Shown here piece after piece: positions 21,762 through 32,413 of a DNA stretch of 50,169 bases. The position numbers and the translations under genes were made by a program. The notes below the pieces were generated by a model. The model worked only from the letters and a program-made list of their open reading frames with translations, made no database searches and was not told the origin of the DNA. Numbering within the stretch: position 1 is the first letter of the stretch; each line of letters begins with the position of its first letter. This DNA comes from a virus, in IMG/VR virus record IMGVR_UViG_3300037311_000346; one strand, 5' to 3'.

Positions 21762-22171
21762 CGCTGGCGAGCGTAGCGGAAGAGGCGCCGAACGCGTGTC
21801 AGGCGTCGGGCCGGCACGATGACGGCGCCGGTCGAGCGCGCGGTCGTCAGGAAGAGGCCGCCGCCGATCGAGACCGAGAGGTGATCGAGTCCCTCGCTCG
21901 TCGGGCCCTGATGCGCCACCCAGCCGGCCGGCGCACGTTCGAGGAGCGCGACCGGCTCTTCCGCCCACTCGTCGCCGTGCCGCGCGAGAAACGCCTCGGC
22001 CTCGGCCTGCGTGGCGCCGAGGTCGTCGAGCGTCCAGAACGCGTCAGCCTCGAGCGCGAGTCCGAGGACCTCGACAAGGTAGAACCGGACAAGTGTCCGG
22101 CAGTCGAAGCCCTCCGAAAGCGACCGGCCTCCGCGGGCGAACGGCGCGCCGACAAGGTCTGCGGCGTTCAC
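21758..22171 (-). CDS. NlpC/P60-family tail protein (lambda K-like)
   Basis: GFDCRTLVRFYL (catalytic Cys context) and DHLSVSIGGGLFLTT (His). GTGA/ATGA coupling on both sides. Confidence 0.75.
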   Translation of the reverse strand: MNAADLVGAPFARGGRSLSEGFDCRTLVRFYLVEVLGLALEADAFWTLDDLGATQAEAEAFLARHGDEWAEEPVALLERAPAGWVAHQGPTSEGLDHLSVSIGGGLFLTTARSTGAVIVPARRLTRVRRLFRYARQR

Positions 22172-22857
22172 GAGTTGGCGACTCCCGGCTCGGCCGCGAA
22201 GTTAAGCGGCCAGAGCACCGGCGAGTGCCCTTCGGCGATCGCGAGGTTGCGCCGCAGACGGCAGTCGGCCAGCCGCTTGCGGCAGTCGCCGAGGATGCTC
22301 CGGTCGGGGTCGAGGAGTTCGATCGGGAACTCGCATCCCGCGCCGCCGTAGACGTTGCCGCAGGCGTCGTCCTGGACGCGCGTCGAAGGGGTCTCCAGCT
22401 CGAAGAGCGGGTCCGCGGAGATCTGAAACGAGATCGCAAGCTCGGTCACGCGGACGTCGCCAATGGTGCCGTCGAGCCTCACGTGCGCGCGTGGGTCGTC
22501 GAGCTCCGCGGTGTTCACGAGGATGAGCGCCGCCCGCTGCCCCTCGAGGAAGTCGCGCTCAAGGAGCTTTTCGACGAGGTCGTCGCGGACGTTTGCGAGC
22601 GTGACCGAGATCGCCGGGATCGAACCGTCGCTCTCCTCCTCGATTTGCCCGACCGAGAACGGCGCCGGCTTCCACGTCACGGGCACTCCGAGTGACGTCG
22701 TCGACCAGGTCAGGTCTCGACCGGCGGACGTGAAGCGAAACGCCTCGAGCGCGCCCGTCGTCGGGTTGCGGCTCTCGAGGAAGAGGAGCCACGCCCAGTG
22801 CCCGGACGTCACCAGCCTGTTCTTGATCGCACGAAGCCCGCCGAGATCACGAGCCAT
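22168..22857 (-). CDS. Minor tail protein L-like, with a C-terminal Cys cluster
   Basis: C-terminal CGNVYGGAGCEF...DCRKRLADCRLRRN...LWPLNFAAEPGV parallels the lambda gpL 4-Cys region. It lies between the giant protein and the K-like gene. Confidence 0.7.
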   Translation of the reverse strand: MARDLGGLRAIKNRLVTSGHWAWLLFLESRNPTTGALEAFRFTSAGRDLTWSTTSLGVPVTWKPAPFSVGQIEEESDGSIPAISVTLANVRDDLVEKLLERDFLEGQRAALILVNTAELDDPRAHVRLDGTIGDVRVTELAISFQISADPLFELETPSTRVQDDACGNVYGGAGCEFPIELLDPDRSILGDCRKRLADCRLRRNLAIAEGHSPVLWPLNFAAEPGVANS

Positions 22858-25800
22858 TGAGCACCTCCTGGACAGCCATCTCCACGCGATAGACCTGGGA
22901 GCCGCTCTGCGACGCGACGCGCTCGGCGCGGATCGACGGCGACGCGAAGACGTACTTGCGGGCAGAGAGGAACTCGAGCGCGTCGCCCGCGTCGAGGTTG
23001 AACGGCGTTTCCGATCCGAGCCGGTCGAACTGCGCCTGAAGCGCGGCGAGCTCGGCTCCCGAGACGAAGCCGGTGAGCGTCCACCCGTCGCGCACGCGCG
23101 TCTGCATCGAGCCGCGCCGGTAGCGCCCGGAGACCATCGACGACTGCGCGCCGCGCGACGTCGCGATCCGCACGGCCTCCCAGGACGGCGAGAGCGCGAC
23201 CGTCTCGACCGGCCCGTCGTTTTCGGCCGGCCAGGGCAGAGAAGGCACGTCCTCGATCGGAATCACGTCCTCGGTCACCAGGTCGAGCTGCACCCACGCG
23301 CGGCAGCGCACGGTCCCGCCCGGTTCCAAGACGATGCCCTCGCGTCCGGCGACGATGCGCTGCGCCGACCGATCGACGACGCGCGCCGCGGTTCCGAGCG
23401 TGGTCACGCCCTCGACCGGCTGCACGTCGAACGCGATCGGCGTCGAGTTCAGCTTCCCCTCGATCACGACCGGCCCGTCGGAGCCGTCGAAGAGCTGGTC
23501 GTAGACCGTCATCTCGAGGTCCACGGGCGTCTCGATCGCAACCCCGGCGGCCGAGAAAGTCGCGAGCCGGACGTCGACGAGGTCGGCGCCGAGACGCCAG
23601 AGCTCGCCGGAGAAGACGCCCGCGGCGAGTTTCAGCTCGAGCCGGTAGCCGACGAACGTCCCGGGCGATCCGGAGAGGTACACGCCGCGCGCGATGAGCC
23701 CCGCGACGCCCGTCGTAGCGCCGGTCGAGAAGACGAAGGTGCCGACCCGCCGCTGGCTCTTGAGGCTGTCGGCGGGTCGTTGGTAGAGCTCGCGCCCCGG
23801 AGTGTTTGCCGAGGCGACCGCGATCGCCTCGTCGGCGGCGTCATACGCGAGGCCGTAGCCCGGAACGAGCTGCAGGCCGTAGCCGCCCGCGTCGCCCGGG
23901 AAGGCCGACGAGAAGTCCCTCCAGAAGACGCCGAGGACGGACCGCACGCGGCAGAGGCTGCCGACCCGGCCGGTCCAGTCGTCGGCCCACAGGAGGTCCT
24001 CCGAGTCGCCGTCGAGCACGCGGAAGCTCGAGCACAGCGCGCCGTAGGCCGCCGTGTTTCCGTTGACGAGCTGAAGCAGGTCGCCGACGACCGCGACGGC
24101 GTCCACGCCGCTCGGGTACTGCCCGCCGGTCAGGTCCGCCTCGAAGACGGTCGTCCACTCCTCGGCCTCGACGACCTGGTAGCCGGGCGTTGGGTTCAGC
24201 GCGACCGGCGTCGGGCCACGCGGCGCCGCGCCGTCGCCGGCAACGATCGAAGCGCCGGCGGCCTGCACAAGGCCAGCCGCCGCCTTGGCCGTGCTCGTCG
24301 ACTCGCCGACGTAGCGCCGCGCCCCGCGCACGCCGCCAGCGACCGAGCCGATCTGGTGCGACGTCTCGTAGACCGCGAGCCCGCCGTCGCTCGCGGCGAC
24401 CCAATCGGCGAAGAGCGCCACGACGAGAGCCTCCATGTCCGCGTGCCCCATCGCTCCGAGCGCGTTCGCGAGCTCCGTCGAATCGGCGGGCGTCAGGCGC
24501 GGCCCGAGAGCGTAGGCGGCGAGTCCGAGCCCGTACGAGGCCTGGAGGAGCGCGCGCTGCGCCGCGACGTGCCCGGCGGTCGTCGCGCGCTCGGCGTCGA
24601 GTGCCGCGACGATGTCCTCGGGGGTGTCGGTCAGGTCGACCATCGCCTCGTCAAAGTCCGGGACCTGGCAGGCGAGCGCAACGATCTGCGCGCTCGGCGC
24701 CGTCCCGAGAACCGCCTCGGTGACGTCGGTCTCGCTCGCGCGCGTCGAGACCACAAAACGCAGCCGCCCGAGCTGCGCGTCGACGTCGAAGGTCTCGCGG
24801 GCGATCGCGAAGACCTCCTCCGCGAGCTGCCCAGCGCCCATCCACTGCGCGACCTCCGGGTCGGCGTCGAGCGGCGTCCCGATTACCTGCCCGTCGGTGA
24901 CGGAGCCGTGCGGCGTCGCGTCGTTGCCGCGCTTCCAGGCCTCGAGCGCCGAGAGCCCGGCGCCGGCGACCGGCACCCAGACGCCCGGGTTCGTCGGCAG
25001 GTCCTCCTGGTAGGCGGCGCGCCACGGCTCGTGCCCGCGCTCGACGTAGACGAGGAGGCTCGGGTCGAGCTCGTCGCGGACGCGCGCGAAGACGCTCTCG
25101 AGCGCCGCGTCGGTGAGTCGCTCGGGGACCGCGAGCCAAAGGTCACGGGCGAAGAAGCTGGAGAACGCGAGGACCTGCCCGAGCGGCACGCCCGCCGCGC
25201 CGGTCCAGAAGAGGGAACCGTCGGGCGCGAGGTCCGCGAAGTCCTCGGCCTCGCTCGTCTCGACTCGCAGCGCGCCTGCCCACCGGAGCACCCGGTTGTG
25301 GATGCCGAGCTCCTCCGCCGCGGCGATGTCCCAGATGCTCGAGTCGATCGCGCCTTCGTCGTCCTCGTGGTAGCAGCGAAGCCCGGTCGGCGGATCGGAG
25401 GGCGTGAGCGCGACGATCGCGAGGTGCACGCCGTCGGCCGATGGCGTCGCGACCTCGAAGGAGATCCGCCCGGAAGCGAGCTGAACGAGCGACGCGCCGT
25501 CGTTCGCGACTTCCCAGGTCACGGGCCCGCCCGTCCACTCAACGAAGTAGGTTCCTGCGCGGTAGGACGGGAGCGGCGACGAGTCGACGCCGGCGGCGAG
25601 GTGGCCGCGGAAGAGCGCCGTCGCGATCCGCTGCCCGCTGGCGACCGCCGTCGGCATCCCGTTTGCGTCCTGCGCGACCGGCGTCCCGTTGTCGACCAGG
25701 TTCTTGGCGCCCGCTGCGGTCTCGGAGACCCAGGGCAGCGCCCCGTGGAAGGCATTCCGCGACAGCCGCACGAGCGCGCTGCCGGCGTCGATCGGCCCGA

Positions 25801-26494
25801 CGTTGTAGCCGATCGCGGAGGCTCCCGGAGCGGCCTGCGCTCCGACGGTCTGAGCGACCGGCTCCTGCCAGACGGTGTCGCGGACCTGCGCGAGGACGTG
25901 CGCCGTCGAGAGATCGTCGGAGTCGACGAGCAGCCGGAAGGTCACCGGCTGGAACATGCTGCCCTCGTACTCGAGGAGCGCGGCGGTCTCCGCGAGCACC
26001 GTCTCGGCGTTCGTCGTCCCGTTGTACCGCGTCAGCTTGAAGCGGAACTGCCCCGGCGTGCCGAGGCCCTGCGCGTAGAACAGGAGCGCGCTCTGGCAGT
26101 CGGCGAACGCCGCGTAGCCGTTCGTCGAGCTCGACGTCGGGCCTCCGCACGCGACCCGGGCTGCGACGCCCATCTTGCGGACGTTCGCCGTCGTGATCGT
26201 CCCGAGCGCCGTCGCCCACTGGAGCGAAGCCTGGACGTCGACAAGCCGGCCGAGGTTCTCGATCCAGGGGACGATCGCGCCGTTGAGAGGCGTGAGGAAG
26301 CTCGGGTTCGGGTTGGCGAAGAGCACGCCGCCGAAGCCCAGCACGTCGAGGCCGGAGATCGGGACCGCCTCGACCCAGCCGTTGGCGGTGCCGACGTCCA
26401 TCCGCAGCCCGAAGTAGAGCGCCGGTAGCGTCGGCATCCCGGAGGAGGCCGTGAAGTCAGACCACGAGAGATCGCGCGGCAGGCCGGAAGCCAT
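22847..26494 (-). CDS. Giant tail protein (1215 aa) occupying the gpM/distal-tail position
   Basis: Track ORF 22847..27298 trimmed to ATG 26494, which shares 1 nt with the TMP stop. Normal composition throughout. Internal LRWAG / LWLAVP / LLVYVERGHEPW pattern. The last ~86 aa resemble the 32063..32413 product. Confidence 0.7.
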   Translation of the reverse strand: MASGLPRDLSWSDFTASSGMPTLPALYFGLRMDVGTANGWVEAVPISGLDVLGFGGVLFANPNPSFLTPLNGAIVPWIENLGRLVDVQASLQWATALGTITTANVRKMGVAARVACGGPTSSSTNGYAAFADCQSALLFYAQGLGTPGQFRFKLTRYNGTTNAETVLAETAALLEYEGSMFQPVTFRLLVDSDDLSTAHVLAQVRDTVWQEPVAQTVGAQAAPGASAIGYNVGPIDAGSALVRLSRNAFHGALPWVSETAAGAKNLVDNGTPVAQDANGMPTAVASGQRIATALFRGHLAAGVDSSPLPSYRAGTYFVEWTGGPVTWEVANDGASLVQLASGRISFEVATPSADGVHLAIVALTPSDPPTGLRCYHEDDEGAIDSSIWDIAAAEELGIHNRVLRWAGALRVETSEAEDFADLAPDGSLFWTGAAGVPLGQVLAFSSFFARDLWLAVPERLTDAALESVFARVRDELDPSLLVYVERGHEPWRAAYQEDLPTNPGVWVPVAGAGLSALEAWKRGNDATPHGSVTDGQVIGTPLDADPEVAQWMGAGQLAEEVFAIARETFDVDAQLGRLRFVVSTRASETDVTEAVLGTAPSAQIVALACQVPDFDEAMVDLTDTPEDIVAALDAERATTAGHVAAQRALLQASYGLGLAAYALGPRLTPADSTELANALGAMGHADMEALVVALFADWVAASDGGLAVYETSHQIGSVAGGVRGARRYVGESTSTAKAAAGLVQAAGASIVAGDGAAPRGPTPVALNPTPGYQVVEAEEWTTVFEADLTGGQYPSGVDAVAVVGDLLQLVNGNTAAYGALCSSFRVLDGDSEDLLWADDWTGRVGSLCRVRSVLGVFWRDFSSAFPGDAGGYGLQLVPGYGLAYDAADEAIAVASANTPGRELYQRPADSLKSQRRVGTFVFSTGATTGVAGLIARGVYLSGSPGTFVGYRLELKLAAGVFSGELWRLGADLVDVRLATFSAAGVAIETPVDLEMTVYDQLFDGSDGPVVIEGKLNSTPIAFDVQPVEGVTTLGTAARVVDRSAQRIVAGREGIVLEPGGTVRCRAWVQLDLVTEDVIPIEDVPSLPWPAENDGPVETVALSPSWEAVRIATSRGAQSSMVSGRYRRGSMQTRVRDGWTLTGFVSGAELAALQAQFDRLGSETPFNLDAGDALEFLSARKYVFASPSIRAERVASQSGSQVYRVEMAVQEVLNGS

Positions 26495-29175
26495 CAGACC
26501 CTCCCGATCGCGCGCCGGAAGCTCGCGTCCGTCGTGAGGCGAGCGGCGATCGTGCGGACGAGGCCGCCGGCGTTGCGCTCGAAGACGCGCGTCGCGTCTG
26601 CGCCGTCGAGCGCCTGGACCGTGACGTTCATCTGGAGAACGATCGGCGTCCCGCGGCCGCCGCCCTTGAACTCGACCGGCACGGCGCCGTTGGGCATCGG
26701 CACGATGGCCTCCTCGTGCTGGCCCTCGCCGGCGACGAAGAGCTGCGGCGACGAGACGACGCCGCCGCCGGCGTAGGCGTGGAACGGCAGCCCCTGAGCA
26801 GCGGCGAGCGCGGGACCGTTGGCGAGCGCCGAGAGTCCCTGCCCCACGGGCTCGACGGGCCCCGAGGCGACGCCGCCACCCGCGAAGCCGAAGACGCCGA
26901 AGAGGCCGTTCAGGCTCCCGCCCGTCAGGCCGCCGATGACGGCCGCCTGGATCGCCGCGCGGATCAGGTCCGCGAGGATCGCCTGCGCCAGGTCGCGCAC
27001 GTTGATCGCGGCGAGGTCGGCCGAGAGCGCCGCCTCGGCGAGCGCGTCGGCGAAGCCCCCAACGGCTCGATCGCCGACTCCGGCCAGGGCGCGGCCGAAC
27101 TCGCCGGTGGTCGCGGTGCTCCGCGCCTTCGCCTCCTCCTCGCGCTCGACGCGGTCGACGAGCAGCAGGAGCCGGTCCGCCTGCTCGGCCGTCAGCCGGT
27201 TTTCGGCCGCGAGCAGCTCGAGCCGCGAGCGTTCGGTCGCCGCCCACTGCTCGATCGCCGCGATCTGCTCGTCGACGGTCGGCGTGACCCGCCCCCACAG
27301 CTCCTGGTACTCCGCGGCGAAGAGCGCCGACTGCGCCGCGGCCTCCTGCTGCGCCGCCGCGGCGCGCGCGAGGACGCGCTCCGTGACGTCGGCCAGGACC
27401 TCCAGCGGCGAACGCGCTACCTCCAGGCCGGCCGCCACGCCCTCGCCGACCGCCTGTCCGATCGCCTCGCCGCCCTCGCGAGCTGCCGCGCGCTGCCTTT
27501 CGAGGCCCTCGAGGATCGCGTCGGTGTCGCCAAACGCCGAGAACGCGCCCGCCAGGGCGTCGAAGCCGAACCCCGAGACCAGCTCCTCCCGGAGCCGGGC
27601 CAGCTCAAGGGTCCTCGGGAGGATCGCCGCGCCGACGCCATCCCGCGTCGCCGCCGCGCTCCGAGCCGCCGCGTCGGCTGCCTCCTCGGCGCGATCGGCG
27701 AAGCCGAGCAGCTCGTCCTCGAAGCCGCGGATCTGCTCGCGCAGCCCGTCGGAGAAGTTGGACGGCGGCGAAGCTCCCAGGGCGCGTCGGGTTTCCTCGA
27801 TCAGGCCGACCGCCCGGCGCACGTTCTCCGCCAGCTCGTCCCGACCGAGAAGCTCGGCGGCGGCGCCGGCCGCCCGCAGAGCGTCCACCTGGAGCTCGCG
27901 GTACTGCTCGAAGACTCGCGGGACCTCGCCGGCGAGAATATCGACGAGCGACTCGAGGCCCGCGACGAACACTCCGACCCCAGCCGCGCTGAGCGCCATG
28001 GCACGCGCGAACGTCGCCACGCGCTCCCTTGCGCCGGACTCGAGCAGCCTGAAGAACGCCTCGAGGTAGCCCGAGAGCGCCTCGGCCGCAATCTCGAGCT
28101 GCAGGAAGACGGTCCGGCCGAAGAGCCCGAACCCTCGGAGCGCGAACTGCGCGACCTCCGCCGCGCCAGCGATCCGCACCATGACGACCTCGATGCCGCC
28201 GGCCTCTTCGATCCACGCCGCAGCAACGCGCGCGGCCTCGCCGAAGCCGACGATCACGGTCTCCGCGCCGCGCGTGACAGCGTAGAGGCCGACCTCGATC
28301 AGCTCGAGGACCTGGTCAAGGCCTCCGAGATCGCCAACGGCCGACTGCAGCGCGAGCACGAGCTCGCGCCCGAGCTTGGCGGTGAGGTCGTCGACCGCCG
28401 CTTCTCCGGCCTTCAGCATCTCCTCGAACTCGTCTCCCGATCGCAGCGTCTCGCCCTGCGCGTCGGCCGTTTGCCGGAGGATCACGGACAGGCGCGCCAG
28501 GACCTTCTCCTGCTCCGTCGCCGCGTCGACGCCTCCGGCGATGCCGCGCGCAAGAAGCTCCGCCTCCAGCGCCTGCGGCTTGATCACGGCTCCGTAGCGC
28601 CGAAGCGCCTCGGCCGACCCCTGCAGCGCCGCGCGGAGGGCCTCGTACGCCTCGGCGTCCGTCGCGTCGTTGAGACTCGCGATGTCGATCGCGAGCTGCG
28701 TCGCGACGAGCGACAGCTCCGCCGCCTCGTCTCGGGCAAAGCCAAGGGGCACAAACGCGTTCCCGAAGTCGCCGAGGGCGAGCTGGATCTCGCGGAACGA
28801 CCGCTGGTAGGTCGACGCCAGCGCCCGCGCGCGCTCCTCCTGCTCGTCGGCGAACTCGCCGAACACCACGTTGAACTTCGACGTCGCACCCTCGGCGTCG
28901 AGGGCCGCCTTGACGAAGCCGCGGCCGTAGGCGATCGAGGCCGCAGCGCCAACGGTCGTAACGGCGGTCGCGGCGATCGCGGCCGTCCGCGCGATGGACA
29001 CGAGCTCCGTCGTTGCTACGCGCGCGAAGGTTACGAACGACAGCGCAGACCGATCGCCGGCGCGCGCGATCGTCTGCGCTGCGCCCGTCGCCGTTTGCCC
29101 GAGGCTCTGCAGCGCCTTCTCGGCGTTGCCCGTCGCGCGCAGCTCGATCAGGAAGGTCTCGGTGGCCTGAACCAT
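26494..29175 (-). CDS. Tail tape measure protein (893 aa)
   Basis: Ala/Leu/Glu-rich helical protein with hydrophobic AIAATAVTTVGAAASIA. Positioned after the chaperone pair. Gly-rich C-terminus. Confidence 0.85.
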   Translation of the reverse strand: MVQATETFLIELRATGNAEKALQSLGQTATGAAQTIARAGDRSALSFVTFARVATTELVSIARTAAIAATAVTTVGAAASIAYGRGFVKAALDAEGATSKFNVVFGEFADEQEERARALASTYQRSFREIQLALGDFGNAFVPLGFARDEAAELSLVATQLAIDIASLNDATDAEAYEALRAALQGSAEALRRYGAVIKPQALEAELLARGIAGGVDAATEQEKVLARLSVILRQTADAQGETLRSGDEFEEMLKAGEAAVDDLTAKLGRELVLALQSAVGDLGGLDQVLELIEVGLYAVTRGAETVIVGFGEAARVAAAWIEEAGGIEVVMVRIAGAAEVAQFALRGFGLFGRTVFLQLEIAAEALSGYLEAFFRLLESGARERVATFARAMALSAAGVGVFVAGLESLVDILAGEVPRVFEQYRELQVDALRAAGAAAELLGRDELAENVRRAVGLIEETRRALGASPPSNFSDGLREQIRGFEDELLGFADRAEEAADAAARSAAATRDGVGAAILPRTLELARLREELVSGFGFDALAGAFSAFGDTDAILEGLERQRAAAREGGEAIGQAVGEGVAAGLEVARSPLEVLADVTERVLARAAAAQQEAAAQSALFAAEYQELWGRVTPTVDEQIAAIEQWAATERSRLELLAAENRLTAEQADRLLLLVDRVEREEEAKARSTATTGEFGRALAGVGDRAVGGFADALAEAALSADLAAINVRDLAQAILADLIRAAIQAAVIGGLTGGSLNGLFGVFGFAGGGVASGPVEPVGQGLSALANGPALAAAQGLPFHAYAGGGVVSSPQLFVAGEGQHEEAIVPMPNGAVPVEFKGGGRGTPIVLQMNVTVQALDGADATRVFERNAGGLVRTIAARLTTDASFRRAIGRV

Positions 29176-32062: not shown

Positions 32063-32413
32063 TCAGGCGACCTCCTGCTCGAGCTCGACGACCGCCGAAG
32101 CGCCCTCGCGCCCGTAGGTGATCCGCAGCGCCGGCTCGGCGAAGGCGACTCGCATCGGCGTCGCGCGCGCTCCGGTCAGCGTGAAGTAGCTGCGGACGCC
32201 GGCCGTCCCCTCGAACATCGAGTGGAGGATCTCGGCTTGCGGCTGGCTCATCCGCTCGAGCCGGACGCGCCACCGCGAGCGCGGGAACTGCTGGCGCCGC
32301 TTGCCGAAGACGGCCGAACTCGTCGCGTCGCCGACGACGCCGTCGAGCTCCCGGACCTCGACGACCGGGAAGGCGATGGCGCCGGCGCGCAGCGTCGCAG
32401 AGCGGAAGATCAC
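32063..32413 (-). CDS. Neck/tail-associated protein (116 aa) sharing a domain with the C-terminus of the 1215-aa giant protein
   Basis: RSRWRVRLERMSQPQAEILHSMFEGTAGVRSYFTLTG...VAFAEPALRI...VVELEQEVA compared with RDGWTLTGFVSGAELAALQAQFDRLGSETPFNLDAG...YVFASPSIRA...RVEMAVQEVL. Confidence 0.5.
   Translation of the reverse strand: MIFRSATLRAGAIAFPVVEVRELDGVVGDATSSAVFGKRRQQFPRSRWRVRLERMSQPQAEILHSMFEGTAGVRSYFTLTGARATPMRVAFAEPALRITYGREGASAVVELEQEVA

Follow-up and report, generated by a model that had tools for sequence, protein, structure and literature searches.

Why would a siphophage place a protein of 1215 amino acids (aa) where lambda has the 109-aa gpM? The question is raised by IMG/VR virus record IMGVR_UViG_3300037311_000346, a stretch of 50,169 nucleotides with a GC content of 72% (hereafter the window), in which one minus-strand gene fills the slot of gene M in the lambda order H-M-L-K-I-J, an order taken from the lambda record for comparison. 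A first-pass annotation had assigned the gene to this slot and had proposed a possible TIM-barrel glycosidase core for its product (P0002, the giant protein); the slot is confirmed by the analysis presented here, and the barrel is supported at the level of fold and homology. As a whole, the giant protein has no match in Pfam, PHROGs, NCBIfam or the PDB sequences, nor by tblastn in 50,697 phage records. We consider it rather probable that it is an evolved distal tail protein (Dit) carrying a pseudo-glycosidase barrel that acts as an adhesin.

The gpM position and the C-terminal module

Two other phages encode full-length, collinear homologs of the giant protein, P0003 (1218 aa, 50% identity) and P0004 (1240 aa, 31% identity). 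Both homologous genes lie directly 3' of a tape measure gene and 5' of a gene for a protein of 228-229 aa. In all three phages the giant gene alone separates the tape measure gene from the gpL-like gene, and the genes overlap. The part of the giant protein that resembles gpM is the C-terminus. A profile built from five C-terminal sequences aligned residues 1116-1171 with residues 21-77 of lambda gpM at an hhalign score of 25.9 (P 7e-4). Composition-preserving shuffles of gpM gave scores of 11.1 +/- 2.1 that peaked at 17.5, and none of the 300 reached the observed value; against gpM the giant protein scored 14.3 with its N-terminal region and 11.6 with its middle region, both within noise. The C-terminus of P0004 gave sub-threshold matches to phrog_14 (E 0.12) and phrog_21806 (E 0.22), the two best PHROGs of gpM itself, and the complete genome of the P0004 phage, whose IMG/VR record is rated 100% complete, contains a single match to phrog_14 (E 0.0026), located at the 3' end of the giant gene. 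The C-terminus of P0002 itself has no PHROG match. The module is predicted to fold as β-α-β-α-β-β-β with a predicted local distance difference test score (pLDDT) of 64-82. By eye, its YRVE...E..N resembles LRVEF...EQVVN of gpM, a stretch that no tool aligned. The resemblance to gpM, the position of the gene and the lack of other genes before the one for the gpL-like protein together make the last ~120 residues the likeliest candidate for the ring-forming module. GpM-like character had initially been ascribed to the last ~86 aa; the resemblance stands, weak and specific, and the length of the module is nearer to the last 100-120 residues.

Several observations weigh against this assignment. The similarity to gpM is weak, with an hhalign probability of 21-27%. 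The gpM family model PF05939 (Phage_min_tail) matches neither P0002 nor any protein of the P0004 phage genome, and DUF2460 finds nothing in that genome either. The AlphaFold model of the C-terminal part (residues 746-1215) is poor overall (mean pLDDT 51), the scans having given so few relatives that its alignment had three rows; it is moderately confident at residues 915-1045 and 1135-1215, and there is no solved Dit among its 50 best Foldseek matches. No fold could be assigned to residues 1-225 and 751-910. A ring module at the end of the protein is also the reverse of the classical Dit order, in which the ring domain is at the N-terminus (PMC7291167), and the giant protein's N-terminal domain is conserved across five homologs. 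These points would suit a peripheral accessory protein of the tail tip or baseplate, with an incidental likeness to gpM; the ring would then come from the product of a different gene or, as in classical Dits, from the N-terminal domain. We think such an arrangement unlikely, since the interval between the tape measure and gpL-like genes holds no other candidate in three phages, the C-terminal score exceeds every shuffle while the N-terminal and middle regions remain at noise level, and the sole phrog_14 match in a complete related genome is the 3' end of the giant gene.

Other searches touching the C-terminus were less informative. In a profile search of the PDB the C-terminal alignment matched only YqbN, at an E-value of 0.59 that is not meaningful, and a scan for relatives of lambda gpM found 100% identical copies only, which are useless for a profile. 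A 116-aa neck-region protein of the window (32063-32413, minus strand) was considered as a paralog of the giant C-terminus: BLASTP found no similarity, and hhalign was suggestive at best (P 0.0057, probability 6.5%). The profile of this neck-region protein gave an hhalign P of 0.019 against lambda gpM. For the giant protein itself, an initial scan of IMG/VR with an alignment of P0002 and P0003 gave no relatives, and when viral and metagenome data were scanned with the C-terminal alignment, the contigs of the P0004 phage and one truncated contig were the only matches. A fourth homologous giant gene is present on a 33-kb IMG/VR contig (L087, 7679-10246), where it encodes 856 aa, is open at the contig end and directly follows an 817-aa tape measure open reading frame (ORF).

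A glycosidase-type barrel and its bacterial family

Residues 226-750 are, by homology and predicted fold, a (β/α)8 barrel of the clan GH-A type. When 1.84 billion representative proteins were scanned with HMMER, 377 matched at E <= 1e-3 (counted as cluster representatives at 50% identity); nearly all of these align to residues 226-497, and a subset extends to ~740. Run on a library of 1.8 billion proteins, phmmer gave E-values as low as 1e-14 against single members of this family. A family profile built from 39 sequences matched the giant protein with 149.2 bits over residues 216-497 and 39.2 bits over residues 539-743. The AlphaFold model of the barrel, made with an 80-row alignment built from bacterial family loci, has eight β-α units and a pLDDT mostly above 90 over residues 228-750. 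All 34 of its Foldseek matches in the PDB at E <= 1e-3 belong to clan GH-A (GH51 arabinofuranosidases, GH5 mannosidase and GH53 galactanase), and GH79 heparanase, GH10 and GH1 come next, narrowly missing this cut-off. The nearest folds are GH51 1pz3, GH5 4nrr, GH53 6gpa and GH79 7pr9, and identity to solved structures is ~10%. The AlphaFold and Foldseek check proposed with the first-pass annotation has thus pointed to a barrel of the GH-A type, and not to β-sandwich decoration alone. The series of GH-A-like motifs that had been noticed around 25000-25300 is also real: the three motifs, at residues 400, 449 and 480, lie in the model on strands β2 (Arg404), β3 (Trp453, Pro457) and β4 (Glu485, Glu489).

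A β-sandwich subdomain, at residues 288-376 of the model, interrupts the barrel between β1 and β2. It is found throughout the family, and here the family profile has weak matches (E 0.001-0.003) to two scaffoldin modules of the cohesin type, 5m2o and 5aoz.

The relatives of the barrel are bacterial proteins that share the motifs GxNL, LRFMDW..TN, GVPxE, DPWFCxPH, VYVEYSNEVWN and AYEGGQHL. A genome scan with a 7-row subset of the alignment confirmed at least 585 family loci in species-representative genomes, mostly of Planctomycetota, Verrucomicrobiota, Armatimonadota, Cyanobacteria, Bacteroidota and Rhizobiales (family loci are labelled L002-L081, and representative proteins P0008-P0152). Profile homology to the cellular proteins covers the whole phage barrel including the inserted sandwich. 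The cellular members differ in being free-standing proteins of ~510-650 aa that are mostly exported in appearance, the majority of 20 inspected N-termini resembling a Sec or Tat signal peptide, whereas the phage barrel is embedded in a tail protein. No Pfam model, NCBIfam model or solved structure (by PDB sequence search) represents the family, and in their sources all members are named "hypothetical" or "uncharacterized". Given this lack of any representative and the intact GH-A motifs, the RFMDW/EYSNEVWN/AYEGGQH family may be an undescribed family of glycoside hydrolases. A large, unannotated, exported GH-A-like family merits biochemical study, which could also point to the glycan of the phage host. 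The gene neighborhoods of three cellular members were heterogeneous and gave no clue to the substrate; one member adjoins a weak Wzy_C match and another a β-helix protein. Tandem pairs of the family gene were observed at two loci from an Ideonella sp. and a Phycisphaerales metagenome-assembled genome (L037, 3496-5343 and 5557-7386; L006, 3367-4932 and 5611-7167).

The barrel is, by sequence comparison, an insertion into a shorter ancestral tail protein. The 677-aa P0005 has no barrel, and matches the giant protein weakly at residues 74-188 and strongly at residues 771-1210; since both flanks exist without the barrel, the barrel is the inserted part. The 1337-aa P0006 shares both flanks with the giant protein and has a different insert of ~670 aa at another site, which indicates that the scaffold accepts different cargo modules. 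The barrel family is also found in other tail contexts: in P0007 (779 aa) it stands behind a baseplate wedge subunit of the Mu gp48 type (PF10076 E 7e-29, phrog_203 E 2e-55), and in P0014 (1252 aa) it is followed by a C-terminal stretch that matches the tail-terminator phrog_179 (E 3e-10). The barrel has therefore been recruited by phage tail proteins more than once.

Active-site residues and the proposed adhesin

In clan GH-A (GH5 and related families) the acid/base glutamate follows β4 in an Asn-Glu pair and the nucleophilic glutamate ends β7. The bacterial barrel family has both glutamate motifs, together with an arginine on β2, a histidine after β3, a tyrosine on β6 and a tryptophan after β8. 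The P0002 barrel has in common with clan GH-A the (β/α)8 fold, the β2 arginine and the post-β4 glutamate within E-x-x-(N/H)-E-x-W; unlike the clan, it lacks the β7 glutamate, the asparagine of the NE motif, the β6 tyrosine and the β8 tryptophan. The asparagine of the NE motif is invariant in 77 cellular rows. P0002 has His488 in its place, confirming the replacement of N by H that had been read from the sequence at first, and keeps the following Glu489; in the model, the strand 482-486 immediately precedes this pair. The glutamate of AYEGGQH is present in 77 of 77 family rows and in P0004, and is replaced by alanine in P0002 and P0003, whose β7 sequences AAYALGPRL and ACHALGVRL contain no acidic residue nearby. 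Other family residues have also been exchanged in P0002: the β6 tyrosine for Gln610, the post-β8 tryptophan for Arg723, the post-β3 histidine for Glu458, asparagine for glutamate at position 412 and for serine at position 446, and glutamate for glycine at position 439. Glu489, Glu485 and Arg404 are the same in P0002 as in the family.

Of 64 near-invariant columns, those with a conservation of 90% or more across 77 cellular members, P0002 and P0003 each keep 27 and P0004 keeps 40, compared with 54-64 (median 63) in the cellular members. P0003 has the same losses as P0002 (ERGHEPW, ACHALGVRL), and P0004 retains both glutamates, the asparagine of the NE motif and the β6 tyrosine (ERGNEQW, AYEWGQQL). 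By this comparison the P0002 barrel is a true but strongly divergent homolog of the family. Since the predicted nucleophile and several predicted subsite residues have been lost and the barrel is nevertheless conserved, we read the barrel of this phage and of P0003 as most likely a glycan-binding pseudo-enzyme and not a depolymerase. The first-pass annotation had spoken of a glycan-degrading or glycan-binding machine; Ala662, His488, Gln610 and Arg723 argue against degradation, and binding is plausible and fits with a predicted ConA-like sandwich further downstream in the same protein. A comparable change is known from the GH18 chitinase-like lectins, in which the enzyme barrel is kept and the catalytic carboxylate is gone, with a presumed switch from cleavage to binding; they differ in fold family and context, and for the phage barrel binding is likewise presumed.

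Phage tail depolymerases are common, and the barrel could still be one if Glu489 worked with a noncanonical partner, for example in an inverting or substrate-assisted mechanism, or with residues of the loop 498-545. Catalytic roles of the two family glutamates are themselves assigned by analogy with clan GH-A, and with Glu489, Glu485 and Arg404, all invariant in the family, retained in P0002, some residual or altered chemistry may persist. The barrel is under constraint at least equal to that of the other domains (49-71% identity between P0002 and P0003 in barrel segments, 40-50% in the other domains), and the loop 498-545, an insertion beside β4 with ~13% occupancy among the cellular members, is the most conserved segment between these two proteins (71%; most other regions 40-57%). 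It has low pLDDT and the conserved pattern GNDA.P.G.VTDGQVIGTPLDADP. The related P0004 has the full glutamate pair. An active depolymerase is nevertheless improbable in the phage described here, because in both P0002 and P0003 the β7 glutamate is alanine with no acidic residue nearby, and because the joint loss of 37 of the 64 near-invariant positions is the pattern of a pseudo-enzyme and not of a mechanistic switch.

The pseudo-enzyme reading leads to the following model. The giant protein would be the distal tail protein of a siphophage tip of the lambda/RcGTA type, enlarged about tenfold. Its last ~120 residues, of the gpM type, would form a ring between the last ring of the tail tube and the gpL-like hub, and the preceding ~1090 residues would lie peripheral to the ring as a host-adhesion device composed of the N-terminal β domain, the barrel with its own sandwich, the middle region and the ConA-like sandwich. 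The barrel would be descended from the exported bacterial family with retaining-glycosidase motifs, and would have been inserted into a shorter ancestral tail protein. It would now bind a host surface polysaccharide in the manner of a lectin and no longer cut it. With several copies per virion, adsorption would be multivalent and reversible, ahead of the contact between the J-like protein and its receptor.

In Dits the ring domain is normally N-terminal and the C-terminal domain, a galectin or OB domain, is peripheral, and lambda gpM is the ring alone (PMC7291167). The evolved Dits of phages of lactic acid bacteria have carbohydrate-binding modules (CBMs) in the galectin domain, which bind host saccharides (PMC7291167), and an evolved Dit aids adsorption to lactococci that produce exopolysaccharide (PMC10688798). 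In the review of this field, CBM-decorated Dits are documented for phages of Gram-positive bacteria only (PMC7291167). The giant protein may be analogous to the evolved Dits in function, being enlarged by putative carbohydrate-recognition modules with a predicted galectin/ConA-type sandwich beside the ring module. Its architecture differs. In the evolved Dits the ring comes first and BppA-type CBMs occupy loops of the galectin domain, whereas the giant protein ends with the ring-like module and has a glycosidase-type barrel of 525 residues, instead of a CBM, as its main insert. Its tail belongs to the lambda/RcGTA type and has gpL-like and J-like genes. Lambda gpM (PF05939, phrog_14) has the same slot ahead of genes of the gpL, NlpC/P60 and J types, and resembles the last ~120 residues; in contrast to the giant protein, with its ~1090 additional N-terminal residues, it is 109 aa long and has no extension, and the sequence similarity between the two is far under Pfam thresholds.

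If the model is correct, the idea of the decorated Dit extends to a lambda/RcGTA-type tail of a phage with 72% GC, to a module derived from an enzyme and to the reversed domain order. The homologs form a natural series: P0005 has no barrel, P0004 has one with both glutamates, and in P0002 and P0003 the barrel lacks the predicted nucleophile. A step from depolymerase to adhesin can thereby be tested directly. The complete scenario, in which a Dit of the lambda/RcGTA lineage with reversed order received a secreted barrel that became a dead, multivalent adhesin in one sub-lineage, and in which the donor belongs to a possible undescribed glycoside hydrolase family, is tentative, and as a conjunction of all its parts falls a little short of probable.

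Reading frame, flanking genes and remaining domains

The giant gene is a single ORF on the minus strand from an ATG at 26494 to a stop at 22847, and its translation is free of internal stops. This ATG shares bases with the stop codon TGA of the 893-aa tape measure gene (TGATG) and is closely preceded by a GGGAGG Shine-Dalgarno sequence. GC content at third codon positions (GC3) is 0.83-0.98 in a single phase over 22.9-26.5 kb; only the minus-strand frame that ends at 22847 is compatible with this phase, which shifts at both gene borders. This constancy, with the switch at both borders, means that no frameshift is visible, and the division into several genes by a frameshift that had been named as fatal to the first reading is not seen. 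The composition of the protein is ordinary and no tandem repeats were found in it, in agreement with the normal, non-repetitive extension described earlier. With two collinear full-length homologs in the same slot, the ORF is one conserved gene. Long spurious ORFs are common in high-GC DNA, and a 1321-aa ORF does cover the same region on the opposite strand, but the idea that the giant gene is an artifact, whether spurious, fused or assembled as a chimera, is effectively refuted by the GC3 phase, by the 1218- and 1240-aa proteins in two independent metagenomic phages and by the occurrence of the P0004 protein on eight contigs from several sources (JGI, ENA, Logan). The features of the giant gene and the genes that flank it are listed in Table 1.

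Table 1. Coordinates in the window of the giant gene, the parts of its product and the adjacent tail genes
Feature	Coordinates	Strand	Evidence
Complete 1215-aa gene in the gpM (distal-tail) position	22847..26494 including stop	-	Translation, GC3, start/stop overlap, collinear homologs P0003/P0004
N-terminal β-rich domain, residues 1-225	25820..26494	-	Conserved in P0003, P0004, P0005, P0006
Predicted clan GH-A type (β/α)8 barrel, residues 226-750	24245..25819	-	Family profile, AlphaFold, Foldseek
β-sandwich subdomain between β1 and β2, residues 271-385	25340..25684	-	Seven strands, pLDDT ~90
His488-Glu489, predicted acid/base motif after β4, Asn -> His	25028..25033	-	EYSNEVWN (family) vs ERGHEPWR (P0002)
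Phage-lineage-specific insertion after β4, residues 498-545, ~48 aa	24860..25003	-	Alignment occupancy, conservation
Ala662 at the predicted β7 nucleophile position	24509..24511	-	hmmsearch alignment; model strand 657-667
Middle region, residues 751-910	23765..24244	-	pLDDT ~30; conserved in P0003, P0004, P0005, P0006
Predicted ConA-like (lectin/glucanase fold) β-sandwich, ~residues 911-1080	23255..23764	-	Foldseek on model, pLDDT 41-85, some loops < 50
gpM-like module, presumed ring-forming domain, ~residues 1095-1215	22850..23212	-	hhalign, PHROG, slot
Tape measure gene, 893 aa, upstream	26494..29175	-	phrog_1292 and phrog_1535 tape measure matches; weak Tape_meas_lam_C
gpL-position gene, 229 aa, downstream	22168..22857	-	Phage_phiJL001_Gp84_N E 1.6e-8, DUF1833 E 0.003, tail PHROGs 778 and 396
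gpK-position NlpC/P60 gene, 137 aa	21758..22171	-	NLPC_P60 E 0.0018, under curated cut-off

Of the domains outside the barrel, the N-terminal one (residues 1-225) has no Pfam or PHROG match and an AlphaFold pLDDT mostly below 50, from three informative alignment rows. It was considered as a duplicate of the ConA-like domain, which hhalign left unsupported (P 0.038). The ConA-like domain itself is recognized by the fold of its model. In the PDB, Foldseek matches it to the CBM66 structure 4b1m (E 6e-5, TM 0.60), LNS/LamG domains, galectins, GH16 and PL14, and in BFVD to ConA-like minor tail proteins of phages. Such a ConA/CBM66/galectin-like sandwich plausibly fits a glycan-binding role.

The neighboring genes identify, by their Pfam and PHROG matches, a tail tip of the lambda/RcGTA type. 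Next in tail-tip order after the genes of Table 1 come a J-like protein (phrog_31 E 2e-57; Laminin_G_3) and an Mtd_N protein, and the tape measure gene, the L-like gene and the LamG module in J that had been named at first are all supported by these matches. The contig of P0003 is partial, and ends after the tape measure gene, the giant gene and the 229-aa gene. The contigs of P0004 (~51.5 kb) continue with a 137-aa gene, a J-like gene of 1596 aa bearing LamG and an Mtd_N gene.

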